This document shows positions 16,801 through 42,884 of a DNA stretch of 59,395 nt, piece by piece. The DNA is taken from NCBI GenBank assembly GCA_964439755.1, contig CAYTPJ010000001.1, forward strand, positions 1-59,395, in the 5' to 3' direction. The notes under the pieces are model-generated. The model searched no databases and had not been told where the DNA came from. It saw nothing but the letters and a program-made list of their open reading frames with translations. Each line of letters starts with the position of its first letter. Within the stretch, counting starts at the first letter, position 1. The position numbers and the translations under genes were made by a program. The stretch is from an uncultured Oscillospiraceae bacterium. Lineage in GTDB: Bacteria; Bacillota; Clostridia; Christensenellales; Aristaeellaceae.

Positions 16801-19800
16801 ACTTGTCCATGCTTCAAAACAAAAAAGAAGGGCTTTTTGCCATTGGGTTGCACACGGAAAGTGGTATGCTTACAGAAGGCTGTTATGATTTATTTGCATC
16901 AGAAGCGTTGATACTCACGTATGTTGCAGTGATGTTAAACATCGTGCCCGTGTCAAACTTTAAGCATTTACAAAGGGAAATTACCAAAACAAAAGGAGGC
17001 AACACATTGCTTTCTTGGTCGGGCACAGCGTTTGAATACCTGCTCCCCATGATATTTTTCCCTACTAAAAAGGGCACTTTGCTCTATGACAGCAACAAGA
17101 GCTTTATTAAAGCACAGATAAAAAAGAATGTGCTCATGCCTTTTGGCATCAGCGAAAGTGGGTATTATGCGTTTGATTGTGATTTAAACTATCAATACAA
17201 AGCGTTTGGGCTGTATGAAGCGGCTTTGTCTAAGGAAACGGAAGGCAATGTGATTGCCCCTTATGCGAGCATATTGTTTTTGAAATACGTGCGTAAAAAG
17301 GTACTTAAAAACATTGAGATATTGAAAAATTGGGGCGCAGAAGGAGCGTTTGGCCTGTATGAGGCGCTGGATTTTGAAAAAGCGAGGAGCACTTCTCCAC
17401 CTGCTGTTGTAAAAAGCTATATGGCGCACCATCAGGGCATGATTTTGTGCGCCATCACCAATGCGCTGTGCAACAACAAAATAGAGCGTACATTTTCTCA
17501 ACTGCCCATGGCGAGTGCACACCATTATTTGCTCATGGAAAAGGGCATTCGGCATGAAAAAGCGAGCAAAATCACACAATACGATGTTCAAAAAGGAGTG
17601 CATCAAGCAGATGAAGGGTATCATGTGCTGACGCAAAATGCTGCCCAAGTGCTCCACGCAAAGCATACTTCTTGCCTCATGGACTCTAAGGGCACAGGGT
17701 ATATTAGGTATAAGGATTTGTATTTGACACGCTATGTATCCCCCCACACTTCAGGCGTATTGTATTACGTGAAAAATCACAATAATAACAAAACAATGCC
17801 TCTGTTTCAAGAGCCTCATGCAACGATCTATCAACACGCCGTTGTATACACTTCGCATTTTGAAGGGTTATACATAAGGGAAACACGCTTTTTAAGCGCC
17901 ATGGAAGGCGCATTTGTGTCCTCCTTTGAGGTGCAAAATAAGAGCGAACAAGACGTTGCATTTTCCTTAACGAGCTATTTAGAGCCTGCAATGAGCACGC
18001 TCAAAGAGGACGAAGCGCATCCAAACTTTAGAGATTTATTCATTGTGACGGAAAAGGTGGGCAAGCGTGCGCTGATTGCAAGGCGCAAAAAGAGAAGCGA
18101 ACAAGAGCAAGAGGGCATGTTGGTACACTTTTTTGTGGGCAGTGTGAAAATGCTTGATTTTTGTGTAAACAAAGCGCAGTTTATAGGTAGAAACAGAGAT
18201 GTGTATGCCCCTAAATTGCTTTTTCAAAATGCAGAAGAAAAGGAAAAAGAAGTGCCCTCCGTGTTCCCTTGCTTATCCATTCAAGCACATCTTGAAGTGC
18301 AGAAAAAGAGCGCAGTCACCTTTTCTTTTGTCACTTCTTATGTGCACACAAAAGAGCAGGCAGATGCGATGCTTAGAACATTTTCTCAAAAAGAGGATGT
18401 GAAAAACGCCCTCGAACTGTCAAAAACACATGGCATGTTGTTGCTCAAAATGTTTGATTATCCAATCATGCGAAGTGTATTTTTGTATCACTTTTTGTAT
18501 CGCATTTTGTTTGACCAAACAAAGCGTGCATACAAGTACAAAAAGGAGGATGTTTGGCAGTTTGCCATCAGTTTAGACCACCCGATTTTGCTCCTTTGTT
18601 TAAAGGAAAATAGCCCGAGAGAGGAAATAAAAAACATACTCAAAGACATTGCTTTTTTAAGCTACAAAGGGATCACAATAGACCTTGTGTTTTTAAAGAA
18701 AAAAGGGGCAGAATACAGCGACATGTTGCATACTTTTTTGAGGGCTGAAATCAGTGTGTCAAAAATCAAGCACAACCATGTGTTCATAATAGAAGATACA
18801 AAGGAAAATGAAAATATACTCTCTTGTTTTTGTACGCTTAAAATTGTGCTCCATCAGAAAATGACATTGCAAGATGTGACCATGCAAGCACAAACCGTCA
18901 TACCACCTACTTTGATGCCTTCTATGTGTCATGAAATTGCGGTGGATAAAAAGCTCAATAAATATGGCAGTTTAAAGGGAGAGAGAGCGTTTGTGGTGCA
19001 CAATATTCCTCCTTTGCCTTGGTGCTATTTTTTGGCAACAGAACATTTTAGTACGCTCGTGTGTGAAAGTGGCATTTTATTTTCTTGCTTAAGAAACAGC
19101 CGTATGGAAAAATTGACCAGACGGCACAAAGATGTGTTAAACCCTCAAAACGCAGAAGAAATATACGTGCTCAATGAGCAAAAAGAAATGCTTCCTCTGT
19201 GTTCTGGCACTGTGGTGTACGAACTGGGTACAGCCACTTACTTTGTAGAAACAAGCTGTTTTACAGCGCAAACCACGTGCTTTACAGATGCGGACATGCG
19301 CATGGGTGTTCGAGATGTGGTAATCAAAAACAAGGGGCAAGAAGGGCTCCATATAGAGCTTTGCTATCAAGTGCATTTTTCAATGGGCGAAAGTGGAAAG
19401 TGGACGCATTGCGAAGCGCAAAAACACGCAGTGCACGCTTTTCACCCTGATTTTAATGGGTTTACATGTGCATATATGGAGAATGCTGTGGTGCACAATG
19501 ATGTGCTGTATATGCCCTTGCACATCCCAAAAAACGAGAAAAAAAGGTGTACAATGTGCTTGCTTTATGCTGAAAATGAACAAGAAAAAACAGACATGCT
19601 GGAGGTACTGTATCAACAAGGGGTGCTCAAGCGAATGCGCAAAGTAAAAGAATATTGGGAGAATAGTCTGTCACGCCTTTCAGTGTCTTTGAACGATGCG
19701 CACATGGAAAGGTGCATCAACACGTTTTTCCCTTATCAAACGCTATCTTCTCGCATTTTTATGCGTTCTTCCTTGTATCAAGAAGGGGGCGCATACGGAT

Positions 19801-21122
19801 TTAGAGATCAATTGCAAGATATGCTTGCGTTGTTGTACACAGATCAAGATCGTGTAAAAGCACATATTTTGCGCTCTGCAAGCCATCAATTTATAGAAGG
19901 GGATGTGCAACATTGGTGGCATGAAGAAAGAAAGGGTGTGCGCACGAAGATATCAGATGATAAGCTTTTTTTGCCTTTTTTAACAGCGTGCTACATAGAG
20001 GCAACAGGGGATCAGAGCATTTTAAAGGAGCAAGTGCCTTATGTAAAAAGTGCGCCTTTGGGGGAACATGAGGAAGAAAGGTATGAAACCCCTCAGGTGA
20101 CCGAATATATGGAAAGCCTTCAAATGCATTGCAATCGTGCGATAGAGAGCGTTAAACTGGGAGAAAAAAGCTTGCCTTTGATGGGGAGTGGGGATTGGAA
20201 TGACGGCATGAACAAAATTGCAGGCAAAAGAGGAGAAAGCGTGTGGCTTTGCTTCTTTTATATATTTGTGTTGGATCAATATAAAAAATACAGTGGCAAA
20301 GAACAAGTGTATGACAAAATGCAAAAGCAGATGAAAAAGGATGCGAATGTTACATGGGATGAAAGCTGGTTTATACGTTGTTATGATCAAAATGCTTTTT
20401 CTGTGGGGGGTAAAAACAGTGCTGTGCCCCGAATAGACCTAATCAGTCAAGCATTTTCTGTGTTTGCACAGATGAAGGAGGACAGGACGACGCAAGCAAT
20501 AAAAAGTGCGTTGGAAAAGCTATTTGATAGAGAAAATGGTGTTGTCAAGCTTTTAGACCCTCCTTTTTCAGAGCAGGAAAAAGCAGGATATATTTCTTCT
20601 TACGTGCCTTATGTTCGAGAAAATGGAGGGCAATACACACATGCTGTTGCGTTTATGATTTTGGCATTGTGCCAAAAAGGAATGATAGAAGAAGCGTGGG
20701 ATATGTTGATCAAAATTTTGCCTTTAAATCACGCAGACAGTGATGAAAAAATAGATGTGTACAAGGTGGAGCCGTATGCGTTGAGCGCAGATGTATATGC
20801 AGGGGCGCTCATGGGGCAAGGGGGATGGACGTGGTACACAGGGAGTGCCTCGTGGATGCAATACGCATTTTATCAAGGGCTTATGGGGCTTAAAATAGAG
20901 GGCGACACACTGAAATTTTCTCCTAAATTAAAAAAGGACATGCACACGTGCACGGTGTACTATACCTATCAAGATACAAGGTATATTTTAACAGGGGATA
21001 AAAATGTGTTTGTGCCCAAACTGGATGGAAAAATCATTACAAACGGTGTGATTACATTGCAAAATGATGGGAAAACACACGTGTACCATGTGCCTGTGGT
21101 GTACCAAAATATAGAAATATAA
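13821..21122 (+). CDS. cyclic beta-1,2-glucan synthase-like giant protein (GT84-like transferase + alpha/alpha-barrel middle domain + GH94 phosphorylase-like C-terminus)
   Basis: 2433-aa single ORF with SD GGGAGGGG upstream.
- TM cluster at about aa 340-385 and 700-800.
- Transferase motifs VVTLDQDT, SHDLIEGE and YNRWVRGDVQ.
- Middle-domain motif RTSPTNMGFYLLS.
- C-terminal GH94-type motifs FRDQLQD, GDVQHWWH, SGDWNDGMN and GGQYTHA. Confidence 0.8.
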   Translation: MRTVREKIVYKKLELPKHYIFLLKNAIKMLTRAQKDMSAHMSEQVYSEGAKWLIENQKILLKRAEETKSQLKGVKKLPVCAQNKQKVRVLLCAENILKGQTVVKKEDIVYYIEHNEIALGYDEIQAFYLSMSVVLLKKVLCAALLLKEEARNYTCAQKALKKAPKGALKALKNNKKAYQMLQNILLLKGDEKTLQLVQMKGNKMVFKEDKQSEPPPLFLLRHAVLCLRALKKMPFEQVKEQISPVYTAFKKDETYCKMDRQSRHLYLFKVHQMTKKFKVPEKEIVQSILALTKGQTGAQKEVGTYLFENQKKVLEHLGKKNIFFSLKTRETLFVCAHCILFIALFLGVFWINKEVLLALLLSLLLYDFISLLACKTVLKYHKNGLLPKLLIRQLDEQLRTLVVVPTLITNRQHALFMVRHLRELRALTPEQNVEFMLLCDLKDAHTRVDQEDQGIVDMLKESVFLLNQNDENVFHLMVRERQMSKTQNKYIGRERKRGSLQSLLNIIADETVEDFYVHQSVPHNFLKNRYRYVVTLDQDTLLLKGDLRRMVGAMEHPLQKDKVGVMQPKMLSHPMSVQTNVQRKLFTECSVPSYLGAIKDVYQDVFSKGSFVGKGIINPVVFCQRIKGKIKNEKVLSHDLIEGEIVCSKVLEDVFMLDQNPKKVSGFYKRYNRWVRGDVQLLPFLGKRYLSLLSKFKILDNMKNALVPLAKTGVILYGAYNNMPWLFVFALSFPLKKAFIHLIFLPYKAYAALDGIVRALFRMLFSKKNLLSWVTADQTDVQINNMVAPYFFTVFVGGVTLYLSLVHALPIYFAIGFLHVLFPLFVPYFDQNEKEKDALKEPQRQTLLLLAQKTFAFFDEHVTEKTNDLPPDNLQVSPDKGRQMRTSPTNMGFYLLSLYCAKELGFISQDTLFERVKKSVHTLKKLPKYKGHFYNWYDIEHLEVLAPPFVSSVDEGNLMACLLTLLQALRGEKTLVPSYQEVLYDIQKLVMDMDLSMLQNKKEGLFAIGLHTESGMLTEGCYDLFASEALILTYVAVMLNIVPVSNFKHLQREITKTKGGNTLLSWSGTAFEYLLPMIFFPTKKGTLLYDSNKSFIKAQIKKNVLMPFGISESGYYAFDCDLNYQYKAFGLYEAALSKETEGNVIAPYASILFLKYVRKKVLKNIEILKNWGAEGAFGLYEALDFEKARSTSPPAVVKSYMAHHQGMILCAITNALCNNKIERTFSQLPMASAHHYLLMEKGIRHEKASKITQYDVQKGVHQADEGYHVLTQNAAQVLHAKHTSCLMDSKGTGYIRYKDLYLTRYVSPHTSGVLYYVKNHNNNKTMPLFQEPHATIYQHAVVYTSHFEGLYIRETRFLSAMEGAFVSSFEVQNKSEQDVAFSLTSYLEPAMSTLKEDEAHPNFRDLFIVTEKVGKRALIARRKKRSEQEQEGMLVHFFVGSVKMLDFCVNKAQFIGRNRDVYAPKLLFQNAEEKEKEVPSVFPCLSIQAHLEVQKKSAVTFSFVTSYVHTKEQADAMLRTFSQKEDVKNALELSKTHGMLLLKMFDYPIMRSVFLYHFLYRILFDQTKRAYKYKKEDVWQFAISLDHPILLLCLKENSPREEIKNILKDIAFLSYKGITIDLVFLKKKGAEYSDMLHTFLRAEISVSKIKHNHVFIIEDTKENENILSCFCTLKIVLHQKMTLQDVTMQAQTVIPPTLMPSMCHEIAVDKKLNKYGSLKGERAFVVHNIPPLPWCYFLATEHFSTLVCESGILFSCLRNSRMEKLTRRHKDVLNPQNAEEIYVLNEQKEMLPLCSGTVVYELGTATYFVETSCFTAQTTCFTDADMRMGVRDVVIKNKGQEGLHIELCYQVHFSMGESGKWTHCEAQKHAVHAFHPDFNGFTCAYMENAVVHNDVLYMPLHIPKNEKKRCTMCLLYAENEQEKTDMLEVLYQQGVLKRMRKVKEYWENSLSRLSVSLNDAHMERCINTFFPYQTLSSRIFMRSSLYQEGGAYGFRDQLQDMLALLYTDQDRVKAHILRSASHQFIEGDVQHWWHEERKGVRTKISDDKLFLPFLTACYIEATGDQSILKEQVPYVKSAPLGEHEEERYETPQVTEYMESLQMHCNRAIESVKLGEKSLPLMGSGDWNDGMNKIAGKRGESVWLCFFYIFVLDQYKKYSGKEQVYDKMQKQMKKDANVTWDESWFIRCYDQNAFSVGGKNSAVPRIDLISQAFSVFAQMKEDRTTQAIKSALEKLFDRENGVVKLLDPPFSEQEKAGYISSYVPYVRENGGQYTHAVAFMILALCQKGMIEEAWDMLIKILPLNHADSDEKIDVYKVEPYALSADVYAGALMGQGGWTWYTGSASWMQYAFYQGLMGLKIEGDTLKFSPKLKKDMHTCTVYYTYQDTRYILTGDKNVFVPKLDGKIITNGVITLQNDGKTHVYHVPVVYQNIEI

Positions 21123-21148: not shown

Positions 21149-21176
21149 ACCTTTTGATGCGCTTTGTCATATTGTA
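21149..21176 (+). promoter_or_regulatory. candidate sigma-K-type (late mother-cell) promoter upstream of the 97-aa module gene
   Basis: AC (21149-21150), a 17-nt spacer, then CATATTGTA (21168-21176) fits the B. subtilis sigma-K pattern AC-N16/17-CATAnnnTA. It lies about 57 nt before the ATG. The motif is short, so a chance match is possible. Confidence 0.3.
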
Positions 21177-21232
21177 AAGTAGGCTGAATGTGTATTTGGC
21201 TTAAAATGTCAATCAAAAAGGAGCAAATAATT

Positions 21233-21526
21233 ATGAGTATGCCAGTCATTACCCCAGGTACGGGCACAAGATGCCAAGCTATCACAGACATCATCACTTC
21301 TGTTGCGTTGGAACAGACTGCCCTTTCCCATATTTTGAATGCAGAAGGTGAAAAAATCCAAGCGATTGTTGCGAGGGCAACAACGGCAGAAGAAATGCTT
21401 GCTGTGAATAAATCGGTTGAAAGCATGGTCAAGTCCATTGCGCGCCTTGAAATGATGTTACACTCTAAATTAGAGTTGTTTGAAGAGTGCTTGTGCGATG
21501 AATGCCCCGTAGCTGTGGCAAACTAA
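21233..21526 (+). CDS. 97-aa protein consisting only of the shared C-terminal module (ALEQTALSHILNAEGEKIQ ... Cys-rich tail CLCDEC)
   Basis: The start is placed at the ATG at 21233, 9 nt after AGGAG; the track ORF begins further upstream at 21188. No signal peptide or TM segment. It is a paralogue of the C-termini of the next two genes. Confidence 0.75.
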   Translation: MSMPVITPGTGTRCQAITDIITSVALEQTALSHILNAEGEKIQAIVARATTAEEMLAVNKSVESMVKSIARLEMMLHSKLELFEECLCDECPVAVAN

Positions 21527-21534
21527 AGTGCTGA

Positions 21535-21571
21535 AATTGCCTCTTGTGCTTTATATACAAGGGGCAATTTT
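21535..21571 (+). terminator. rho-independent terminator after the 97-aa gene
   Basis: 13-14-bp stem AAATTGCCTCTTGT / ACAAGGGGCAATTT (one G-U pair) followed by TTTTGCATTT. A TATAAT box at 21582-21587 follows it. Confidence 0.7.
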
Positions 21572-21613
21572 GCATTTCTATTATAATAAGCCATTTGGAA
21601 AGGTTGTGATACC

Positions 21614-22936
21614 ATGGCTTTTGGTGATTTGATCACCACATTTCAGCTTCCAGAAAACATTCCCATGGGGTTGGGATATGGGTTGACCGTGTATAATGCG
21701 CAACTTGTAAACGGAAGCTTTACAAATAACAATAGCGATATTGGTTTTTTTGATATCAACAATAATTTGAATTATTTAAGCCATGTAGAAACAGAAGAAA
21801 CATATCAGAGTATACAATACGATGAAGATGAGCATGTTTTTTGGGGGTTGGCAAACATTATCCCCACCCCTTTTCCACAACCACACTTGCAGAAAATTTA
21901 TAAATTCAATGTAGATGGCACATCGATTTTTAATTTTGATGTGCACGACAGCATTCCGCCTGCTGACCGTTTTAATGAGAACGATTGGGAAAGTCAGCTG
22001 GCAAATGCCCTTTCAATGACGCCCGATAAGACGGAATTTTGGGTATCTTATTACCGTGCATTTCGTATTTATCGTTTTAGTGTCGCAGGGAATTATCTTG
22101 GATTTTTTGATATTCCTCCAGAAAATGAAACGATCACTGGCATGAGCACAGACGGTACCAACATGTGGTTTGTGACGTATGATTTTAATCCAGACCCACA
22201 AAGGGTATTGACCATCAGTAAAAGAGATACAATGGCAAATGTGCTTCAAACAATTACAGTGCCTGTGCCCGAATCCCCCCAAGGTGGAGGATATAATATC
22301 AACGATATTGAGTTTGATCAAGTCAATTTTTTGCCAAAGTGCGCTTTGTGGGTGCGTGCATCTACGGGCGATGTAGGCAACGCTCAGCAGTATGCGCATG
22401 TATATGATATTGGCGATTGTAGTGGTAGCTGTACAGAACCTCCTATAATTATCGCAGAAAATTTGTGTTTGAAAGTAGGCGCAAATTTTGATCCACTCTT
22501 CAACGTGCAGGCGGTCGACTGTGACGGTAGCGACATCCCTTTGACAGAAGCAAACGTAATCTTTAACGATGTAGACACGGCAACACCGGGTATGTATACG
22601 GTAACATACCAAGTACAGAGCGTGTCAAACGATTTAATAACAGTCAAAAGCATTTATGTAGGCGTGGTGGAAGAAACACCCCGTATGCAGGCGATGACGG
22701 ACTTGCTTGCATCCATTGCGCTTGAAGAAACAGCCCTGTCACACATTTTAAACGCAGAAGGTGAAAAAATACAAAAAGCACTCGCATTGGGGCTATCGAG
22801 TGCAGAGCTTATAAAAATCAACCAATCGGTGGAAGATATGACAGAGGAAATTACAAACTTGGAATGGGTGTTGGAGCAAAAAGCAATGCTTTGTTCTTGT
22901 GAAAATGGTCAACCAAAATGTGACTTTCCACAATAA
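21614..22936 (+). CDS. 440-aa protein: beta-rich blade-like repeats + Ig-like domain + shared C-terminal module and Cys tail
   Basis: No signal peptide (MAFGDLITTFQLPEN...).
- Recurrent xFW(V/G)...IY(K/R)F blade-like segments.
- An Ig-like segment ending PGMYTVTYQVQSVSNDLITVKSIYVGVV (DUF5011/Big-like pattern).
- Then TDLLASIALEETALSHILNAEGEKIQ ... LCSCENGQPKCDFPQ. Confidence 0.8.
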   Translation: MAFGDLITTFQLPENIPMGLGYGLTVYNAQLVNGSFTNNNSDIGFFDINNNLNYLSHVETEETYQSIQYDEDEHVFWGLANIIPTPFPQPHLQKIYKFNVDGTSIFNFDVHDSIPPADRFNENDWESQLANALSMTPDKTEFWVSYYRAFRIYRFSVAGNYLGFFDIPPENETITGMSTDGTNMWFVTYDFNPDPQRVLTISKRDTMANVLQTITVPVPESPQGGGYNINDIEFDQVNFLPKCALWVRASTGDVGNAQQYAHVYDIGDCSGSCTEPPIIIAENLCLKVGANFDPLFNVQAVDCDGSDIPLTEANVIFNDVDTATPGMYTVTYQVQSVSNDLITVKSIYVGVVEETPRMQAMTDLLASIALEETALSHILNAEGEKIQKALALGLSSAELIKINQSVEDMTEEITNLEWVLEQKAMLCSCENGQPKCDFPQ

Positions 22937-22947
22937 AATACAATGGA

Positions 22948-22984
22948 AGCGCTTCTGTGTTTTCTTTCACAGGAGCGCTGTTTT
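22948..22984 (+). terminator. rho-independent terminator after the 440-aa gene
   Basis: 12-bp stem AGCGCTTCTGTG / CACAGGAGCGCT (one G-U pair; 22948-22959 / 22968-22979) followed by GTTTTGTG. It lies inside the 5' extension of the track ORF 22943-24049. Confidence 0.7.
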
Positions 22985-23032
22985 GTGCATACAATGATAC
23001 AGGGAAAGTATAAAAAGACAGGAGGTTTTCCC

Positions 23033-24049
23033 GTGCTAAACGGTGTTTGTGTAAAAGAAATACCCTTTGTATTGGACTGTCAAAGTGCGTATGATTGTGT
23101 TGCTTTTGACGGTTACTATTATTATTTTTTATTTTGCCATCAGCAGTATGTTTTAAAAACGGATGTTTGTTTTCAATGTGTCCATTCTTATCCTTTGCAT
23201 AGAAAATACACGAGCTTGTGCTTTGACAAAGCTGAAAAATGCTTTTGGGCATCTTATACCAACAGCCCGTATACCCTGTATAAACTGAGCATAGATTTGT
23301 GCGAACTTGGTACATGGAGTGTTCCCAAAAGTGCAAACGGATGTGGCGTATTGTCTAGCCTTTCTTATGATGATGTAAACAATGCGCTGATGTTCGTGTT
23401 GGACAATCAGTTTGTTCAATATAAAATAAGCACCAACAACTCTTGTGTACAGTATGATGATGTAAATGCCTATATTTTTTCTGCATCTTGCGTGTTTCCT
23501 TTTTTTGCCTTAACGCTTGTTCAAAACAATTTGACAAAGTTTGTATTGTTAGACTGTGCAGGGCACGTGCAACACGCATGTGATATGCCTTGTGATTTTA
23601 TTGTTAAAAACGTCTATATGTCATGCGAACAAAATGTTCAAAACCAACTTTTGCTCGATGTGTTTATTGTGTATAAATGTGGGCAAAGATGTTGTAAAAA
23701 AGTGCTTGCTTTTCCACTTGATTGCGCTTGCACTTCTTGCCCACAGCCCTGCTCTCCTCCTTTGTGTTTCCCTGTTCAGCCGTGTGATGGAGGCATAGAA
23801 ATACTCCACTCTATTGCTTTACAGGAAACGGCACTTGCGCACATTTTAAACGCAGAAGGAGAAAAAATACAAAAGGCAGTGGCGTGTGCTTGCTCTGTGG
23901 AGGAATTGTTGTGCGTCAACAAAAGTGTGCAAGATACCATACACAAAGTTACAGCTTTAGAACAAACCTTGGCTTTAAAGCTGACCAGTGTGTTAGATAT
24001 GCCCTCTTGTTGCCCGACAGATTGTTGCGCACAGGGAAAAATGTTGTAA
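23033..24049 (+). CDS. ~338-aa very Cys-rich protein: beta-rich region + Cys/Pro linker + shared C-terminal module and CC..CC tail
   Basis: The start is reassigned to the in-frame GTG at 23033, 7 nt after a perfect AGGAGG (23020-23025) and downstream of the terminator hairpin. I count about 32 Cys in about 338 aa. The linker reads CACTSCPQPCSPPLCFPVQPC. The module reads HSIALQETALAHILNAEGEKIQ and the tail MPSCCPTDCCAQGKML. No signal peptide. Confidence 0.75.
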   Translation: MLNGVCVKEIPFVLDCQSAYDCVAFDGYYYYFLFCHQQYVLKTDVCFQCVHSYPLHRKYTSLCFDKAEKCFWASYTNSPYTLYKLSIDLCELGTWSVPKSANGCGVLSSLSYDDVNNALMFVLDNQFVQYKISTNNSCVQYDDVNAYIFSASCVFPFFALTLVQNNLTKFVLLDCAGHVQHACDMPCDFIVKNVYMSCEQNVQNQLLLDVFIVYKCGQRCCKKVLAFPLDCACTSCPQPCSPPLCFPVQPCDGGIEILHSIALQETALAHILNAEGEKIQKAVACACSVEELLCVNKSVQDTIHKVTALEQTLALKLTSVLDMPSCCPTDCCAQGKML

Positions 24050-24072
24050 AACAAAACCTTGTTTTTAAAAAA

Positions 24073-24114
24073 GCCAGACATTTTGAAGAAAATCTTCTCA
24101 GTGCCTGGCCTTTT
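24073..24114. terminator. possible bidirectional terminator between the convergent module genes and the holin
   Basis: Imperfect hairpin GCCAGACA / TGCCTGGC (7 of 8 pairs) enclosing a GAAGA-AAA-TCTTC mini-hairpin. T-runs lie on both outer sides. The structure is weak. Confidence 0.35.
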
Positions 24115-24143
24115 ACTATGCGATTGTATAGAAAACATTCAAA

Positions 24144-24629
24144 TTACTGTTTGGATATGTTTTCTTTTTCTAAATTTTCTTTCTCCATTTTTCCTTTTTC
24201 ATCTTTTTTGGTTTTATCACCATGGTTGTGCAGTTGCGCCAAAATCGTTTTAAGCTTATCTGGGATGGGCAAGCCCAACCTGCTGATATTTTCTATGAGG
24301 GATAAACCTTCGTTGGTTAGGTAAAAGAAAATAATGGCAGACCGTAGTGCATTGCCATTTTGCACCACGTGCACGTCTATGATGTGCCCAATGCCTACGA
24401 GAGAAAATATCAATATTTTTTTAAATATGCCTTTAAATCCCACTTCGCTGGACATGCTTTTTTCCACAATTGCACACATCATGCCCGAAATATAATCTAA
24501 AACACAAAATACAATTAAAGCAATCAACATGCCGTCCATTTCTCCTAAAAATACGCCGAGCCACCCCCCAAGGAGGGTACATGACATTTGAATTTTTGTC
24601 CAAATCATGTCTATGGTGTTATTATCCAT
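24144..24629 (-). CDS. phage-type holin, holin_4_1 / TcdE toxin-secretion-lysis holin family
   Basis: 161 aa with TM helices. The family pattern is present: VLDYISGMMCAIVEKSMSSEVGFKGIFKKILIF...RSAIIFFYLTNEGLSLIENISRLGLPIPDKLK, with a charged Lys/Glu C-tail. The ATG lies inside the last codons of the hydrolase gene (8-nt overlap), and GGAGG is 9 nt upstream. Confidence 0.85.
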   Translation of the reverse strand: MDNNTIDMIWTKIQMSCTLLGGWLGVFLGEMDGMLIALIVFCVLDYISGMMCAIVEKSMSSEVGFKGIFKKILIFSLVGIGHIIDVHVVQNGNALRSAIIFFYLTNEGLSLIENISRLGLPIPDKLKTILAQLHNHGDKTKKDEKGKMEKENLEKENISKQ

Positions 24630-25524
24630 TGATTGTAGCCTCCAGTTTCTTTAATTTTGAAAGCAATAAAGATAATTCAGAACGGATGCTTTCTATTTCC
24701 TTTTTAAAAGCTTGGTATTGCAAAGTATCGCTTTCTTCTATGCCTTCTTCTTCCTCCTTTTTTTCCTCCTTTTGGGTAACAAAAAAGAGCAACTTTTCCC
24801 ACGTTTTGTCGCCTACAATACCATCTATTTTCAAATTGTTCTTTTGCTGAAACAAGAGCACGCTTGCTCGGGTTTTCTTTCCAAAAATCCCGTCCACCAC
24901 CAAGCTTTCTCCAAGCAAGTTCAAATGTCTTTGAAGTACTTTGACATTTTCTCCTCTTGAACTAAAGCGCAGTGTTTCTAACCCCTGTTTTTCTGTTATA
25001 TCGCTGTATAGCCCTGTTGGAATCATATGGTGTGTCCACGCAGAAGGCACAAACTTTTCTCTCACCACGCCATAAGCGTGTGCTTTTGCATGCACCACTG
25101 TGTTGTCGCCCAAATACAAACCTACATGTGTCATAATGCCCTTTCTTTCTCTAAACACAAGGCACATTTTGTCTGTCTGCATGCTTTGAATGGTGCCTCT
25201 TGTGTCGTACGCTGTTTTTCTCCATTGGCTGGTTGCACCCGACACGAGGCGAATGCCCCCTTCTTTTAAGGCGTAGCGTGTGAGCTGTGCGCAATCATAC
25301 GCCGTTTTCCCCACATTGTTTTCTCTATCAAAATATTTGCAGTTTTGGCAGCTGCTTGCCCTGCCTGATAATATATCGCAATGGTGGAACATCTTGCTTT
25401 TATAGTCGGGGTATTGCTGTGCACGTGCCTTTCGATAGGCAGTCGTACATATTTGCCCTGTGCCACCATATATATAAGGATGCCCCACTTTGGAAAGCGC
25501 CCATTGCTTGATCTTTTCAATCAT
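24622..25524 (-). CDS. NlpC/P60 (C40) peptidoglycan endopeptidase with PG_binding_1 domain and coiled-coil tail (endolysin-like, no signal peptide)
   Basis: Catalytic Cys context YDCAQLTRYAL and His context THVGLYLGDNTVVHA. PG-binding repeat GENVKVLQRHLNLLG...DGIFGKKT...DGIVGDKTWEKL. I place the start at the ATG at 25522-25524 (MIEKIKQW), 9 nt after GAGGAG, rather than the track start at 25566. Confidence 0.85.
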   Translation of the reverse strand: MIEKIKQWALSKVGHPYIYGGTGQICTTAYRKARAQQYPDYKSKMFHHCDILSGRASSCQNCKYFDRENNVGKTAYDCAQLTRYALKEGGIRLVSGATSQWRKTAYDTRGTIQSMQTDKMCLVFRERKGIMTHVGLYLGDNTVVHAKAHAYGVVREKFVPSAWTHHMIPTGLYSDITEKQGLETLRFSSRGENVKVLQRHLNLLGESLVVDGIFGKKTRASVLLFQQKNNLKIDGIVGDKTWEKLLFFVTQKEEKKEEEEGIEESDTLQYQAFKKEIESIRSELSLLLSKLKKLEATING

Positions 25525-25860
25525 ATATTTTTTCTCCTCATCTAAATGTGGGCAAAATGCACCCACAGATAATGCCTGCTTTAAAAACAGACTGCTTTTA
25601 GGATATCTATCCTATTTACATCATACGTAGTTTTTATAGGAGTGTTCTTTTATATGAAAAGACAAATATAAATAAAATATACGAATTGAAAGGTTCATTG
25701 TCCCAAAATGAAAAATACAAGCACATTTTAAAAAATGAAAATTATGGCAGATGAACGAAACATTTTTTATCTTTGCGTATTTTAGGGAAAAACGCTTTAC
25801 AATTTTAAAAAATATGATATACTTGAGGAGGCAAAAAAACACACGAAAGGATGACAGAAT

Positions 25861-26985: not shown

Positions 26986-28650
26986 TTACATAGGGGATTG
27001 TGGGAAACGCAACAAAACAGTTGTACCTTTTAAAGGTTCGCTGGTTAATTGTACTGTGCCACTTAGTGTTTGCACTGCGTGCTTTACAATGGATAAGCCC
27101 AACCCTGTGCCTCCTGATGCTTTGGAACGGCTTTTATCCACTCTGTAAAATCGCTCAAATATTCTGTCTATGTGTTCGTTTGGAATGCCAACCCCTGTAT
27201 CTTTTATGGACAGACTTGCAAAATTGCCTTCCGTTTTTCCGTCTATAAAAATACTGCCATTTTGTACGTTGTATTTTATAGCGTTGTCACACACATTGTA
27301 CAAAATTTCATACAGAAGATGTTTCACACCGTATATCTGAAGGGGGGGCATATGCACTGTGACAGACAGGTTTTTGTGCTTTATTTCTTGACAAAGTGAC
27401 TCAAGCACTTCATTTAAAACGTCCTTTACACACACTGTTTCAAAGGGAAATTGTGTGTTTTCATCCAATTGAGAAAGCCGAATGATGTCTTCAATGAGTG
27501 ACACCATGCGTTGCGCTTCCTTTCGTATGCGTTCAGAAAAAACAGGAATATCTTGGTTTTTTACTAAATTGTTTTGTAGCAACTCTGAACTTCCAATGAT
27601 GGATTGTAAAGGTGTTTTAAGCTCGTGAGATACATTGGCAGTAAATTCTTTTCTGTTTCTTTCTAAAAACACATGGTCTGTGACGTCAAATATCAGCATC
27701 ACCATGCCCATGTTTTCCCCTGAAAATTGAATTTTGCTGATATCAAACTGATACACTCTGTCGTTTAATTCGATTTGAATTTCGCTGTGATTGTTTGCTT
27801 GTGCATTGTCAATTGCAGTAGATAAACGTGCATTTCGGTTGATGGTGATGAAGTCTTTCCCAATGCAGTATTTATCTGTTTTAAACAGGTGTAGGGCAGA
27901 AGGGTTGATGCTTACAATTTGAGTTTTTTCATCGAGCAACACAAGCCCTTCATTCAAGTGTGCTGTGATTTGGTTGAATTTCTTGTTTTGATTTTCAAGA
28001 GCATATAGTTGTGCATTGATTTCCTCTTGCTGTTTAAAAATGCGTGTAAGCAAGGGGGATAACTCGTCATATGCTTGTTCATTTTCAAGAGGTTCATCCA
28101 GCTTTAAATTGTTTAATGGGGCAATGATGCGCTTTGCCAACTTATTTGAAAAGAAAATAGAGAGCAAAACTGCAAGAAGGGTCAAGAAAAATACAGGGGT
28201 TGCCATGTCTAAAAGAAGCAAGGGAAAGGAGGACTGAATGGATGAAATGCGAAGCACGGAGCCGTCTGACAGCAACACAGCTTGATACATTGTTTTATGC
28301 ATGAGCGTGTTAGAATAACGGGCGCTTTTGGAAGAGCCGTTTAGAAAGGCTTCTTTCACTTCTGTTCTATCTTTGTGATTGTCCATTTGAAGTGCATCTT
28401 TTTGTGTGTCAAATAACACTGTGCCGTCTGAACGTATGTGCGTAAAACGGAAAGTGTTAGAAGATAGAGTGGACAAAGCGTCCACATTATTTTGCTCTGT
28501 ACAAAGGAGCGCAAGAGATAATTCATCCTCCAGCTGTTTTTCTTGCAAAACAGAAAAATGCTTGTACAGTACACCCACTACAATGGTATAGCTGACCATA
28601 ATCATGAGCAAAGAGATGAGCAAAAGAGAGCGAAATATTTTTTTCGTCAT
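26986..28650 (-). CDS. phoR: phosphate-sensing histidine kinase PhoR-like
   Basis: Two TM segments, a PAS-like region, the HisKA box FTANVSHELKTPL, and HATPase motifs (DTGVGIP, GGTGLGLSIV). The start is set at the ATG at 28648-28650 (MTKKIFRS), forming an ATGA overlap with the regulator stop. Confidence 0.85.
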   Translation of the reverse strand: MTKKIFRSLLLISLLMIMVSYTIVVGVLYKHFSVLQEKQLEDELSLALLCTEQNNVDALSTLSSNTFRFTHIRSDGTVLFDTQKDALQMDNHKDRTEVKEAFLNGSSKSARYSNTLMHKTMYQAVLLSDGSVLRISSIQSSFPLLLLDMATPVFFLTLLAVLLSIFFSNKLAKRIIAPLNNLKLDEPLENEQAYDELSPLLTRIFKQQEEINAQLYALENQNKKFNQITAHLNEGLVLLDEKTQIVSINPSALHLFKTDKYCIGKDFITINRNARLSTAIDNAQANNHSEIQIELNDRVYQFDISKIQFSGENMGMVMLIFDVTDHVFLERNRKEFTANVSHELKTPLQSIIGSSELLQNNLVKNQDIPVFSERIRKEAQRMVSLIEDIIRLSQLDENTQFPFETVCVKDVLNEVLESLCQEIKHKNLSVTVHMPPLQIYGVKHLLYEILYNVCDNAIKYNVQNGSIFIDGKTEGNFASLSIKDTGVGIPNEHIDRIFERFYRVDKSRSKASGGTGLGLSIVKHAVQTLSGTVQLTSEPLKGTTVLLRFPQSPM

Positions 28651-29321
28651 ACGCTTTTCTCCATTCGATAGCCCACGCCACGCACTGTTTTGATACACTT
28701 GCCTGCGTCTTGTAGTTTTTGGCGCAATGTGCTCACATGCATGTCCACTGTTCTTTCTTCCCCCAAGTAGTCAGCGCTCCAAACGCTTGTAAAAAGCTGT
28801 GTTCTTGTAAACACCATGTTGGGGTGCGATAAGAAAACGTGTAACAGATTAAACTCTTTGTATGTTAAATCAATACGTTCTGCGTTGACATACACAATGT
28901 GCTCATCTAAATTCATAACAATTTGCTCAAAACACAGTGTGTGGCTTTGGTCTTTGGGGGTTGCTCTGCGCAATACAGCTTTAATGCGTGACACCATTTC
29001 CATCATGCCAAATGGTTTCACCAAATAGTCATCAGCGCCCATGTCCAAACTCTTGATTTTGTCATACTCTGTACCTTTAGCAGTTGCCATAATCACTGGG
29101 ATAGAAGCAGTTTCTGCATCTTCTTTGAGCATACGCAATATGTCCACACCGTCTGTATTGGGGAGCATGATGTCCAGCAATATGAGCGCAGGTTTTTGCT
29201 TTTTTAACGCTTTAAAAAAAGAAATGCTTTCTTCAAAACCTTCTGCTTCAAAGCCTGTTGATTTTAAAGTGTATAGAATGATTTCACGAATATTTTGTTC
29301 GTCTTCCACACAGTAAATCAT
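28647..29321 (-). CDS. phoP: OmpR-family response regulator (PhoP/PhoB-like)
   Basis: Receiver (MIYCVEDEQ...LILLDIMLPNTDG...KPF) plus a winged-helix trans_reg_C domain (TVDMHVSTLRQKL...VRGVGYRM). The start at 29319-29321 forms an ATGA overlap with the phoU stop. Confidence 0.85.
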   Translation of the reverse strand: MIYCVEDEQNIREIILYTLKSTGFEAEGFEESISFFKALKKQKPALILLDIMLPNTDGVDILRMLKEDAETASIPVIMATAKGTEYDKIKSLDMGADDYLVKPFGMMEMVSRIKAVLRRATPKDQSHTLCFEQIVMNLDEHIVYVNAERIDLTYKEFNLLHVFLSHPNMVFTRTQLFTSVWSADYLGEERTVDMHVSTLRQKLQDAGKCIKTVRGVGYRMEKSV

Positions 29322-29968
29322 ATTTTTCCTCCCTTGTGCGTGCCTGTGATTGAAAAAATGACCCATTCTGCAATGTTGACAGCGTGGTCACCAATGCGTT
29401 CAAAATATTTAGCGATCATGAGCAAATCCAAAGCGTATTCGCCCTCCGTATGGTCTTTTACAATCATGTCAATGAGCTGTGTTTTGATGTTTGAAAAATG
29501 GTCGTCTACAATATCATCGTGCTCAATGACACTGTTTGCAAGTGCTATATCTCGTGCAACGTAAGCATCCACACTTTTTGTGACCATGAAAATCGTTTCT
29601 TCTGCCATCTTTTGAATGGGTTCAAACGTTTGAATTGGGCGACCTTTTAAAAATGCAACAATTTCAGCAATGTCGGAAGCTTGGTCACCTATTCTTTCCA
29701 TGTCTGTAATGATTTTAAGGGCAGAAGATATTTGCCTTAAGTCACGGGCAACAGGTTGTTGCTGTAAAAGGAGTTTTAAGCACATGGACTCTATGTTGCG
29801 CTCCGTTTGATTGACTTGATCTTCAAGAGGAGATACCTTTTCAGCAAGTGTGGGGTTGAGCGTAGTCACTGCTTGCGCAGACAATCGGATGGCATTTTCA
29901 CACAGTACACCCATTTCAATGATCTCTTTGTTTAAAAGGAGCAATTGTTCATCAAATCCATTTCGCAT
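29318..29968 (-). CDS. phoU: phosphate signalling complex protein PhoU
   Basis: 216 aa with a duplicated PhoU helical repeat carrying E/DxxxD motifs (MERIGDQASDIAE and FERIGDHAVNIAE). Confidence 0.9.
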   Translation of the reverse strand: MRNGFDEQLLLLNKEIIEMGVLCENAIRLSAQAVTTLNPTLAEKVSPLEDQVNQTERNIESMCLKLLLQQQPVARDLRQISSALKIITDMERIGDQASDIAEIVAFLKGRPIQTFEPIQKMAEETIFMVTKSVDAYVARDIALANSVIEHDDIVDDHFSNIKTQLIDMIVKDHTEGEYALDLLMIAKYFERIGDHAVNIAEWVIFSITGTHKGGKI

Positions 29969-30723
29969 TAGCCAAACCTCCCTGTAATATAGTCTTCCGT
30001 TCGTTTATCCCTTGGATTGGAGAAAAAATCTTGCGTATTGCCATATTCCACCAAGTCACCTAAGAGAAAAAATGCAGTGTAGTCAGACACTCTGACAGCT
30101 TGTTGCATATTGTGCGTGACCATGATGATGGTGTATTGCGATTTTAAATCGCTGATTAAGTCCTCGATTTTGGATGTGGAAATGGGGTCTAAAGCGCTTG
30201 TGGGCTCGTCCATAAGCAACACATTGGGGGTGACAGCGAGCGCACGAGCAATACAAAGCCTCTGTTGTTGCCCCCCTGACAAGCCCAAAGCGTTTTTCTT
30301 GAGCCTGTCTTTTACTTCTTCCCAAATGGCTGCTTTTTTAAGGGACGTTTCAACAATTTCGTCCAGTTTGGCTTTGTTCTTCATGCCATGTGTCTTAGGG
30401 CCGTAAGCGATGTTTTCATAGATGCTCATGGGGAAGGGATTGGGCTTTTGAAACACCATGCCAACATCCCTGCGCAATTCGTTTACATCCATGTTGGGCG
30501 CAAAAATGTCTTTGCCTTGATACTCTATTTTGCCTTTTATTGTGACCCCTTGGACAAGGTCGTTCATTCGGTTGAGGGTGCGCAAAAAGGTAGATTTACC
30601 ACATCCTGAAGGCCCGATGAGCGCTGTGATGCTCTTTTCGTTTATGTTCATGTGGATGTTGTTGAGCGCTTGAGAGGCAGTGTAAAAAAGGGATAGGTTT
30701 TGAACAGAGAAAATGGGTGTCAT
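29968..30723 (-). CDS. pstB: phosphate ABC transporter ATP-binding protein
   Basis: Walker [10 protein letters not shown], signature LSGGQQQRL, Walker [12 protein letters not shown]. The PstB-specific N-terminus and length (251 aa) fit. Confidence 0.95.
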
Positions 30724-31571
30724 AAGTGTTTCCTCCTTGAAAAATTTCTTTGCAGGACCGTGATGAGGGCATTGATAAAGATGGTCAAAATCATCAGTAA
30801 GCTTGCAATGGCAAAAGCAACTTCAAATTCGCCTTGCTCTTTTGCGTACACGTACAGGGCAACGGTGAGCGTTGCGCCTGCGCTGTTCATGCCTGTAAAA
30901 AAATCATTGAGGGCGTGTGCAAAACCTGCTGTAAACAAGAGCGCAGCGGATTCTCCAATAATGCGCCCTATAGATAGTATACACCCTGTTACGATTCCGT
31001 CAATACAATGTGGCAAAACAACTGTATAAATAACTCGAAATTTGCCCGCCCCAAGCCCAAAAGCGCCTTCTCGATAGCTTTGGGGCACTGTTTTTAAACT
31101 TTCTTGCGTAGTGCGCATGATGGTGGGCAAGTTCATCATGACAAGCGTCATCGCCCCTGCAAGCAGTGAGGTTTTCATATTCAAGAATTGGCAAAAGAAA
31201 AGCATACCCACAAGCCCGTATATGATAGAAGGAATGCCAGAAAGTGTTTCTGCAGCGTACTCTATCAGTTTCACGAGCTTTTTGTTTGTCGCATATTCAG
31301 TTAGATAAATGGCGGCACACACCCCCAACGGCAGGACGATGAGAAGCGTTGAAAGGATGATGTACAACGTGTTTAAAATGTTTGGGAGAATGCCAATGGT
31401 GCCAGATAAATAGCTGGGCTTTGTGGTTAAAAAAGAATAAGAGATTTGAGGAATGCCCTTGATTAGAACGTAAAAAATCAAGAAAACAGAAAGCAAGGCA
31501 GTGATAAAAAGTGCAAATAGACAGAGACCTTTCATGCAGTGGTTATACAAACTTCTTTTTCTATCTTTCAT
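30720..31571 (-). CDS. pstA: phosphate ABC transporter permease PstA
   Basis: 283 aa, 6 TM segments, EAA-like loop ([21 protein letters not shown]). It sits between pstC and pstB with a 4-nt overlap with pstB. Confidence 0.9.
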
Positions 31572-31574
31572 ATT

Positions 31575-32480
31575 TTACATACCTGCTTTTTCTTTTTTTA
31601 ATAGGAAATTGAGCGTGCAGTTGATGAGCATAATAAATAAGAACAATACGAGTGCAATGGAAAAGAGTGCCTGCCGTTGTAAACCACTGGAGTAGGACAT
31701 TTCACTTGCAACAGCTGTGGTTAAAAAACGTACACTTTGAAAGAGAGAGGGCATGTTGACGGCATTTCCTGAAACCATCATAACAGCCATTGCTTCTCCA
31801 ATGGCACGCCCTACGCCCAATACAATGGAAGAGGCGATACCACTTTTGGCAGCAGGTACGCAGACCCTAAAATACGTTTCTATCTTTGTAGCACCCAGCG
31901 CATAGGAGGCATCTTCGTATTCTTTGGGCACTGCTTCTAAGGCAGTTATGGATATTTTGATGATGGAGGGCAATATCATGATGGTGAGCACGATGATGGC
32001 AGACAATAGCCCGGAGCCATCGGGCACATCAAACAATGTGCGTATATTGGGCACAAGCACAAGCATGCCCACAAGCCCATACACCACAGATGGAATGGAG
32101 GACAACATGTTGACAGCAAACTCCATGCTGTGCTTGATAAAATCAGGCGCCATTTTGGCTAAGTACACAGCTGTAAAAAAGCCGATGGGCACGCCAAGGA
32201 GGATGGCAAACGTGGTGCCGTAGATACTTGTTAAGATGAAAGGCAATATGCCAAACTCGGGTGTTTGAGCAGTGGACGCCCATGTGGGGCCAAACAAAAA
32301 GTGGATGAGCCCAATCTCTTTAATGGCAGGAAGCCCTGCTATGATGAGGTAAATGGAGATGAGCAACACAAAGCCTATTGTGATGAACCCACATAGAAGG
32401 AAAAGAATGTGCACCGTGTTTTCCAAGCGATTTTTAAGTTTCCTTTTTCTATTCATATCTTTTCTGAGTGTAATGTCCAT
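31575..32480 (-). CDS. pstC: phosphate ABC transporter permease PstC
   Basis: 301 aa, 6 TM segments, EAA loop (EDASYALGATKIETYFRVCVP). It is the first gene of the minus-strand pst string. Confidence 0.9.
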   Translation of the reverse strand: MDITLRKDMNRKRKLKNRLENTVHILFLLCGFITIGFVLLISIYLIIAGLPAIKEIGLIHFLFGPTWASTAQTPEFGILPFILTSIYGTTFAILLGVPIGFFTAVYLAKMAPDFIKHSMEFAVNMLSSIPSVVYGLVGMLVLVPNIRTLFDVPDGSGLLSAIIVLTIMILPSIIKISITALEAVPKEYEDASYALGATKIETYFRVCVPAAKSGIASSIVLGVGRAIGEAMAVMMVSGNAVNMPSLFQSVRFLTTAVASEMSYSSGLQRQALFSIALVLFLFIMLINCTLNFLLKKEKAGM

Positions 32481-41930: not shown

Positions 41931-42884
41931 ATGACAACGTATGTGCAGGATAATTATGACTTGTTTGAATGCCAAAAGGATGATTGTAAACACAATTGCT
42001 GTATTGGTTGGGAAATAGATGTGGACGAAAAAACGCTCCAAAAATACAGCGCTCTAAAGGGAAACTTTAAAGAAAGATTGGATCAGAACATTTCTTTAGA
42101 GGGCACACCACATTTTCAGTTGCAAAAAGGAGATAGATGCCCTTTTTTAAACGAACAAGGTTTGTGCGACATCATCACAGAGCTTGGAGAAGATTATTTG
42201 TGTGAAATATGTGATTTGCACCCTCGTTTTGTGCACACATACAGTTCGAGAAAAGAAATAGGGTTGGGGCTTTGCTGCGAAGAAGTGGCGCATCTTTTGC
42301 TTGCAAAAGAAACACCCTTTTCCCTTGTGAAAATCAAAGAAGATGCACAACACAAAAAAATCAAGGACAAAGAAAAACTATTCTTTGCCCTTAGAAAACA
42401 TATTTTTTCAATTGTACAAGATAGGAGTATGCCTTTTGCTCATCGTGTAGAAAAATTACAAGCATACTGCAATCGCCCTGAAATGCTCTCTGTGTTTGAT
42501 TATGCAGTTTTTTATCAAACGCTTGAAATGTTAGACCCTGCTTGGAAAACAATGCTCCAAAATTTAGAAAAGTGTGAACAGGATGCGCATTGTACATCAA
42601 GCTTTACCTTTCATGGAGAAAGCTATGATATTGTGCTTGAACAATTGCTTTGCGCTTTTTTATTCAGGCACTTAACCAATTGCATGGAGGGTATGTATTT
42701 AACACCTGCTGTTTTGTTTTCCATTTTAAGCGTTCAAATGATCGATGCATTGATACGTTGCCATGTATTAGAACATAAAAATATAACGATTGAAGATACA
42801 GCACAAATCATTCGTGCGTATTCATCAGAGATTGAGTATTCCACTCAAAATGTGGATGAAATTATGCAAAAACTCTGTGAATAA
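41931..42884 (+). CDS. Cys-rich FliB/YkgJ-like protein (flagellin lysine-N-methylase family-like)
   Basis: N-terminal FECQKDDCKHNCCIGWEIDVD...RCPFLNEQGLCDI...CEICDLHPRF matches the CxxCxxCC zinc/iron-chelating pattern of this family. No flagellar genes are nearby. Confidence 0.5.
   Translation: MTTYVQDNYDLFECQKDDCKHNCCIGWEIDVDEKTLQKYSALKGNFKERLDQNISLEGTPHFQLQKGDRCPFLNEQGLCDIITELGEDYLCEICDLHPRFVHTYSSRKEIGLGLCCEEVAHLLLAKETPFSLVKIKEDAQHKKIKDKEKLFFALRKHIFSIVQDRSMPFAHRVEKLQAYCNRPEMLSVFDYAVFYQTLEMLDPAWKTMLQNLEKCEQDAHCTSSFTFHGESYDIVLEQLLCAFLFRHLTNCMEGMYLTPAVLFSILSVQMIDALIRCHVLEHKNITIEDTAQIIRAYSSEIEYSTQNVDEIMQKLCE

Follow-up and report, generated by a model that had tools for sequence, protein, structure and literature searches.

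The stretch of DNA analysed here comprises 59,395 nucleotides (nt) of contig CAYTPJ010000001.1 from an uncultured Oscillospiraceae bacterium and is referred to, at its full length, as the window. Between positions 24144 and 25524, it carries a two-gene cassette on the minus strand that encodes a peptidoglycan hydrolase and a holin. The cassette is an orphan endolysin/holin module of phage type; the finding is real and mostly ordinary, and the module lies beside three genes of the alpha-helical endospore appendage (A-ENA) family. The cassette and its borders comprise the following features, with protein lengths in amino acids (aa).

24622-25524, minus strand: leaderless peptidoglycan hydrolase of 300 aa, counted from the ATG at 25524 (Pfam, alignment)
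24622-24629, minus strand: 8-nt overlap of the hydrolase stop and the holin start, ATGGATAA, indicative of translational coupling (read in the sequence)
24144-24629, minus strand: holin of 161 aa, PF05105/TIGR01593, with a Lys/Glu-rich charged C-terminal tail (Pfam, NCBIfam, PHROG)
24068-24114, both strands: bidirectional intrinsic terminator hairpin between the holin gene and the convergent A-ENA3 gene (folding of both strands)
25525-25860: intergenic region of 336 nt, common to the hydrolase gene and a divergent GH20-like gene

The hydrolase is listed as an open reading frame (ORF) of 314 aa at 25566..24622 on the minus strand, with a GTG start at 25566. The true start is most likely the ATG at 25524, which follows a GAGGAG ribosome-binding site (25539-25534) and coincides with the aligned N-termini of 26 homologues. 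Pfam locates NLPC_P60 at residues 87-181 and PG_binding_1 at residues 204-259 (numbering of the 314-aa ORF). The NlpC/P60 catalytic domain, which contains a Cys-rich insert, is followed by the PG_binding_1 domain and by a C-terminal tail that is charged and coiled. In an alignment of 27 sequences (the hydrolase and its 26 homologues), all family-invariant columns are kept, including the catalytic Cys of the YDCAQ motif, H147, H159, and four Cys. The nearest solved structures for the catalytic domain are those of Tn916-like cell-wall hydrolases and CwlO.

The four cysteines define an insert of the form C-x22-C-x9-C-x2-C, invariant in the hydrolase family and located at residues ~26-62 of the 300-aa protein, between YIYGG and YDCAQ. 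The insert is outside the Pfam NlpC/P60 match and may be a metal-binding element.

The N-terminus of the hydrolase, MIEKIKQWALSKVGHPYIYGG, contains no hydrophobic stretch, the maximum Kyte-Doolittle mean over 17 residues being 0.17 in the first 40 residues. This bears out the preliminary description of the locus, made from the sequence alone, which had described an NlpC/P60 + PG_binding_1 hydrolase without signal peptide. The domains, the catalytic residues, and the missing signal peptide are all those of the phage NlpC/P60 + PG_binding_1 endolysin family. The placement downstream of tail genes that is typical of a lysis module is observed for the homologues (contigs L001-L003 and 78 viral contigs) and not for the window hydrolase.

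The holin matches PF05105 (Phage_holin_4_1) over model positions 2-116 of 116, with an E-value of 8.6e-40 and 135.9 bits (cut-off 22.2). It also matches the NCBIfam family TIGR01593, 'toxin secretion/phage lysis holin', with 84.5 bits (cut-off 40.2), and the holin family PHROG 199. Two hydrophobic segments are found at residues 23-56 and 63-90, followed by the C-terminal tail KTKKDEKGKMEKENLEKENISKQ. GGAGG at 24643-24639 precedes the start codon. The TcdE-pattern holin coupled to the hydrolase by an 8-nt overlap, as described before, is thus confirmed by both family matches and by the overlap itself.

On its downstream side, the cassette is separated from A-ENA3 by 94 nt (24050-24143; earlier given as 95), and the convergent arrangement stands as first described. 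The hairpin in this gap folds with -26.1 and -25.0 kcal/mol on the two strands (z = -3.3 and -4.1). On the upstream side, the cassette promoter must lie within 25525-25860. No match to the sigma-K, -E, -F, or -G consensus is found in this region, a consensus-pattern scan being weak evidence. A sigma-70 promoter upstream of the hydrolase was also considered and set aside, as its matches are at chance level only.

The relatives of both proteins are found in phages. The closest non-self homologue of the hydrolase is only 52% identical. On the long contigs L001-L003, homologues are located directly after tail or tape-measure genes and near integrases, and in one of these contigs, the prophage-like L003, a PF05105 holin then follows. 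Beyond these three prophage-like contigs, a scan of IMG/VR places relatives of the hydrolase in 78 viral contigs. Two of the 78 viral contigs, L099 (with a 17-nt overlap) and L121, carry a PF05105 holin immediately downstream of the hydrolase. The unusual order of endolysin first and holin second is therefore itself a phage arrangement, since it is seen in L099, L121, and L003. For the holin, the counterparts in human faecal phages of Christensenellales, Oscillospiraceae, and Acutalibacteraceae show identities of ~58-62%. Judged from these relatives, the hydrolase/holin pair descends from a phage lysis module.

We infer the mechanism of lysis from the established behaviour of the PF05105 holin and NlpC/P60 endolysin families. 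The holin would build up in the cytoplasmic membrane and open it at a critical level, giving the signal-less NlpC/P60 endopeptidase access to the wall. PG_binding_1 would dock the hydrolase on the peptidoglycan, where stem peptides would be cut, and a cell expressing the cassette would be killed and lysed.

A search for other phage genes in the window supports the earlier statement that there are none in the 59 kb. Pfam scans covered 36 large ORFs, 30 across the window and six around the cassette, and gave no terminase, portal, capsid, tail, integrase, or repressor. Six ORFs at 26986-32480, left out of these scans, were read by eye as PhoR/PhoP/PhoU/Pst genes. Among the scanned ORFs are MatE, two-component systems, HemN, a glycogen-branching enzyme, a 2433-aa GH94 protein, SecA, PrfB, TsaD, ribonucleotide reductase, DapA/DapB/Asd, a class II aminoacyl-tRNA synthetase, and SpoIIP. 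When all ORFs of 85 phage or prophage loci were compared with the window by tblastn, matches were confined to the cassette, the A-ENA domains, and an SH3-repeat protein. No tRNA gene is present in the window.

Within the window, chromosomal genes alone extend for 24 kb on one side of the cassette and for 34 kb on the other. An integrase, a repressor, structural or packaging genes, att repeats, and a tRNA target, any of which would mark a prophage or its remnant, are all absent from the 59 kb. Two pairs of repeats flank the cassette, D2 (15/19 nt, at 24033 and 25784) and I22 (14/17 nt, at 24060 and 25573). They would be the remaining candidates for att sites of a larger prophage or mobile element with the cassette at its edge, continuing beyond the region; they are short, imperfect, and at chance level, and were rejected. 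A larger prophage hidden in the 59 kb can largely be ruled out.

No close relative of the host lineage turned up in the collections searched; among 5.8 billion proteins, the best match of PhoR is 53% identical. The distant relatives L093 and L094 keep the Pst-PhoU-PhoPR operon with a different downstream context. A metagenome scan with the GH20-like neighbour gave no match.

The three neighbouring genes, called module genes in the preliminary description, encode by homology A-ENA subunits, the building blocks of "sporesilk" fibres on the spore surface. They form a complete clostridial A-ENA cluster (21149-24049) with the following features.

21149-21176, plus strand: sigma-K-like match AC-N17-CATATTGTA, 57 nt upstream of A-ENA1 (consensus scan)
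21233-21526, plus strand: A-ENA1, a 97-aa single-domain A-ENA subunit, probably the major subunit (PF26595, PDB 9ihh)
21532-21572, plus strand: strong terminator or attenuator hairpin with a 17-bp stem, directly after A-ENA1
21614-22936, plus strand: A-ENA2, 440 aa, an Ig-like (Big_3) passenger with a C-terminal A-ENA domain
22943-24049, plus strand: A-ENA3, 368 aa with 34 Cys and a C-terminal A-ENA domain, convergent with the holin gene

Residues 1-93 of A-ENA1 match PDB 9ihh, 'Ex vivo spore-silk A-ENA fibers', with an E-value of 6e-16. Its homologues number more than 1250, with identities of up to 87%, and all carry the precomputed PF26595 'A_ENA' annotation. A-ENA2 has a weak Big_3 match, and its orthologue in L005 carries PF26595. 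The region 23801-24016 of A-ENA3 is matched by an A-ENA protein of a phage locus (tblastn), and the three genes have a common 87-nt core, the direct-repeat family D1. The A-ENA domain is C-terminal in the two larger proteins of the window and N-terminal in published fusions.

Sleutel, Sogues and Remaut (Nat Commun 2026, PMC13111695) reported the A-ENA family, whose subunits are self-assembling alpha-helical hairpins with autocatalytic isopeptide cross-links. In Bacillus thuringiensis israelensis (Bti), they need no assembly machinery (PMC13111695). The isopeptide residues K42/N64/E39 and K84/E28 of the Bti protein correspond to K41/N59/E38 and K79/E27 in A-ENA1 and are invariant in 25 sequences (A-ENA1 and 24 orthologues). 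In the same alignment, K76, K77, and Q82 of Bti are replaced, and C14, C86, C88, and C91 are invariant or near-invariant instead, which suggests that the cross-linking chemistry of clostridial A-ENA may partly differ from that in Bti.

Four strict sigma-K matches are present in the window, against 6.3 expected by chance, and the one at 21149-21176 is the sole match upstream of a gene. Since the total for the window is not above chance, this site is suggestive at most. In Bti, a putative SigK site lies 46 bp upstream of a-ena (PMC13111695).

Directly upstream of the cluster, at 13821-21122, lies the gene of the 2433-aa protein, with GH94 catalytic, supersandwich, and glucoamylase-like domains; by eye it resembles a cyclic beta-1,2-glucan synthase or phosphorylase. 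Elsewhere in the window, 41931-42884 encodes a FliB-like flagellin lysine-N-methylase (NF038110, E-value 8.8e-60); no flagellar gene was found among the 36 large ORFs scanned.

The three neighbours had been described as lacking an export signal. This holds for A-ENA1 and A-ENA2, which have no hydrophobic leader; A-ENA3 has no canonical signal peptide, with the reservation that its start codon is uncertain. The A-ENA of Bti is also made leaderless, builds up in the mother cell, and forms an extrasporal matrix after lysis of the mother cell (PMC13111695). The missing signal peptides are explained by this route, because A-ENA accumulates in the mother cell and is freed when that cell lyses. Holin-mediated export is therefore not needed to account for the leaderless neighbours.

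This bears directly on the earlier proposal that the pair releases the three proteins, which in its non-lytic form would be a type 10-like secretion from living cells by the holin and the endolysin. The proposal draws on the holin belonging to the same hidden Markov model (HMM) family as TcdE (TIGR01593), on the known release of leaderless cargo by holin/endolysin pairs such as TcdE/TcdL, ChiWX, and TtsA (PMC9527704, PMC10847048), and on candidate cargo genes just 94 nt from the cassette. Against it, the cargo is A-ENA, which in Bti leaves by mother-cell lysis and assembles without machinery. Moreover, the endolysin is full length with intact catalytic residues, unlike the TcdL remnant, and neither a TcdR/UviA-type sigma factor nor a toxin is encoded among the 36 large ORFs scanned. 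With a pairing that is also not conserved at other A-ENA loci, we consider non-lytic export highly improbable.

Conservation of the pairing was assessed in about 168 A-ENA loci (~2 Mb), consisting of 80 species-representative genomes and ~88 further loci. The species-representative set comprises 80 loci with flanks of up to 10 kb (1.21 Mb), analysed by single-sequence and seed searches. A metagenome set of 83 loci (0.77 Mb) was searched both with seeds and with profile HMMs derived from the alignments of the hydrolase and of the holin. The seeds covered NlpC/P60, Amidase_2, Amidase_3, glucosaminidase, SH3, and PF05105 only.

None of the 80 species-representative loci contains a PF05105 holin, NlpC/P60, Amidase_2, or Amidase_3. 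The clusters in these 80 species are chromosomal and consist of a ~95-aa subunit and one to three larger A-ENA-domain proteins (~350-440 aa). Pfam analysis of 150 first neighbours gave no peptidoglycan-hydrolase catalytic family among the 25 most frequent families, a result in which single occurrences could be hidden; LysM had two members. The only recurrent first-neighbour family is Glycos_transf_1, with 14 of 150. Examples of ~427 aa are located at L022:11740-13020, L052:11773-13053, and L073:4394-5674 (among L009-L088), and such enzymes may glycosylate the fibres. Of the contexts of the closest A-ENA1 homologues, L004, L007, L174, and L176 contain no lysis gene.

The 83 metagenome loci yielded a single match, the hydrolase of L203. 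At L203:1196-3125, the genes of a single-pass membrane protein of 108 aa and of a leaderless NlpC/P60 + PG_binding_1 hydrolase overlap by 4 nt and are followed on the same strand by two A-ENA genes. The hydrolase is 57 nt upstream of the A-ENA genes, ABC permease genes lie further upstream, and no phage genes are present. From its gene content and order, L203 appears to be an independent parallel to the arrangement in the window.

A second case is L005, the context of another of the closest A-ENA1 homologues, on a 2-Mb contig. At L005:5674-10294, a PF05105 holin stopped after ~79 aa, a Cu_amine_oxidN1 protein, and an AMIN/Amidase_3 protein split by a stop codon are encoded directly upstream of, and divergent from, the orthologues of A-ENA2 and A-ENA1. 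The surroundings include transposase and conjugation genes. This locus may be a decayed lysis cassette or the result of assembly errors.

The pairing is thus found in about two of 168 loci, both partial, with a related hydrolase in L203 and a truncated holin in L005. This is about equal to chance adjacency to any wall hydrolase. Because the profile and seed searches returned one hydrolase and one truncated holin in ~168 loci, the pairing with A-ENA is not a conserved cassette. Conservation of the holin, hydrolase, and module genes as a neighbourhood was the check suggested by the preliminary description itself, and the result goes against it. We also looked for a general enrichment of wall hydrolases beside A-ENA clusters and found none by seeds, profile HMMs, or the first-neighbour Pfam scan.

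From the phage side, the association is equally rare. The hydrolase and holin families otherwise reside in phage lysis modules without A-ENA genes, contrary to a tie between the pair and its neighbours. No A-ENA gene is found in any of the 78 viral hydrolase loci or in 50,697 GenBank phage records, and four of 2.9 million IMG/VR viral contigs contain one. In two of these contigs, A-ENA adjoins a prophage lysis module (L089:1249-3043 and L092:6154-9761). In L089, tail genes come with a small ORF that, by eye, may be a holin, and with an Amidase_2/SH3 endolysin that is convergent with A-ENA. L092 runs from tail genes through a PF05105 holin and an Amidase_2/SH3 endolysin to an A-ENA-collagen gene. 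One of the two carries a near-Bti A-ENA; either A-ENA is cargo at the phage end here, or the prophage boundaries were called too generously. As regular phage cargo, A-ENA is ruled out by the three counts above.

L089 and L092, together with the weak repeats D2 and I22, are what speaks for the cassette marking the border of a prophage or other mobile element that extends beyond the region, or for A-ENA having arrived as phage cargo. The long chromosomal flanks without tRNA or phage remnant, the chance level of the repeats, the viral counts, and the chromosomal location of A-ENA clusters of the same composition in 80 species all point the other way, and we regard either version as very doubtful.

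We conclude, with moderate confidence, that the cassette is a complete, intact phage-derived lysis module that was left behind or captured alone in the chromosome, and that its adjacency to A-ENA is circumstantial. The argument for a stranded lysis cassette is that the pairing is not conserved at A-ENA clusters and that A-ENA needs no exporter. The cassette is best read as a relic or a stand-alone autolysis unit.

Several observations weigh against this conclusion. Both ORFs, both ribosome-binding sites, the overlap, and the private terminator are intact, and the flanks measure just 94 nt and 336 nt and hold no gene fragments. The cassette is tidier than a typical decaying prophage, which hints at retention by selection. 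Its GC content and its GC content at third codon positions (GC3) are inside the spread of the host genes; a foreign composition was considered and rejected, as GC, GC3, and codon usage are all in the host range. In addition, the lysis genes within 10 kb of A-ENA clusters in the non-viral loci sampled all abut the cluster directly, with loose parallels in Bti (a convergent Amidase_3), L203, and L005. Three types of hydrolase are represented among these abutting genes, and occasional functional recruitment is therefore possible.

Such recruitment could have turned the cassette into a domesticated mother-cell lysis module, expressed late in sporulation, in which the holin and the leaderless endopeptidase free the spore together with the sporesilk fibres encoded next to them. 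This corresponds to the alternative named in the preliminary description, lysis of the mother cell in a spore former, and it agrees with what is known of A-ENA. The host is a spore former, as indicated by SpoIIP, and A-ENA accumulates in the mother cell for release by lysis. The Bti cluster holds a convergent amidase for which a role in mother-cell lysis had been suggested and which is present in purified fibres (PMC13111695). The phage-free L203, the intact, cleanly bounded, and host-like cassette, and the sigma-K-like site upstream of A-ENA1 are all compatible with this role. However, the consensus scan finds no sigma-K or sigma-E site upstream of the hydrolase, the cassette forms a transcription unit of its own, convergent with A-ENA and set off by a terminator, the holin and amidase of L005 contain premature stop codons, and the pairing is missing from ~166 of ~168 A-ENA loci. 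We therefore see domestication for mother-cell lysis as a possibility worth keeping in view, yet an unlikely one.

A broader proposal, which we put forward somewhat more tentatively still, is that A-ENA loci of separate Firmicute lineages acquired, independently of one another, leaderless wall hydrolases that serve as dedicated release factors, in some cases together with a holin, and that the captured phage pair runs programmed mother-cell lysis here. Examples of such recruitment would be the Amidase_3 of Bti, the NlpC/P60 + PG_binding_1 hydrolase with PF05105 holin of the window, the L203 pair, and the holin with Amidase_3 of L005.

If the cassette is simply a stranded lysis module, as we favour, it adds one more case of phage lysis genes outliving their prophage, with little wider consequence. 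The breach of the mother-cell membrane that lets leaderless wall hydrolases free the spore is not well understood. A captured pair that lyses the mother cell would offer a holin-based answer to how these enzymes cross that membrane, and under sporulation control, a holin wired in beside genes for fibres released at the same moment would be a directly testable mechanism. A more immediate gain is in annotation: the "leaderless module proteins" are now identified as sporesilk subunits of the A-ENA family, whose description dates from 2026, and a typical clostridial A-ENA cluster becomes visible, with a ~95-aa subunit and larger proteins with C-terminal A-ENA domains, often beside a GT1-type glycosyltransferase. 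The occasional presence of leaderless wall hydrolases beside A-ENA loci is a modest, testable lead.

Among known systems, the wall hydrolases CwlB, CwlC, and CwlH of B. subtilis, some of them leaderless, free the spore late in sporulation. In contrast to the window hydrolase, they are amidases under sigma-K control without a holin partner; upstream of the cassette, no sigma-K match is found.

The TcdE/TcdL genes of the C. difficile pathogenicity locus (PaLoc) resemble the cassette in several respects. The window holin belongs to the same HMM family (TIGR01593/PF05105), is phage-derived, and is located outside a prophage beside genes for leaderless proteins. The two loci differ in that the 36 large ORFs of the window include no toxin gene or TcdR-type sigma factor gene, and in that the endolysin is a complete, full-length NlpC/P60 enzyme and not an amidase fragment. 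The neighbours also differ, being spore-appendage subunits with a known, lysis-based exit.

With the type 10 systems (ChiWXYZ of Serratia, TtsA of Salmonella, and the Yersinia entomophaga cassette), the window has in common a holin and a peptidoglycan hydrolase outside a prophage. These systems are Gram-negative, with spanins, dedicated regulators, and a cargo link that is conserved and experimentally tested, whereas the link in the window is not conserved. Release in Y. entomophaga occurs by lysis of a specialised subpopulation (reviewed in PMC9527704), which is conceptually close to mother-cell lysis.

The a-ena cluster of Bti on pBtoxis (a-ena, amidase pBt031, a-ena1) is similar in arrangement, with a hydrolase gene on the opposite strand, convergent with a-ena, and a-ena1 beyond it. 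Its hydrolase is an Amidase_3 by Pfam with no annotated holin beside it, on a plasmid among cry/cyt genes, whereas the window hydrolase is of the NlpC/P60 + PG_binding_1 type, is paired with a holin, and is encoded on the chromosome. The Bti amidase has a SPOR-type sporulation-related repeat domain, was earlier proposed to act in mother-cell lysis, and was found in purified fibres (PMC13111695).

The lysis modules of gut Clostridia phages differ from the window pair in setting, as the pair stands alone among chromosomal genes, with its own terminator and no other phage genes in 59 kb. In composition, the two agree: the same two families are present, in the order endolysin then holin with an overlap, the NlpC/P60 + PG_binding_1 endolysin is leaderless, and the holins are ~60% identical.

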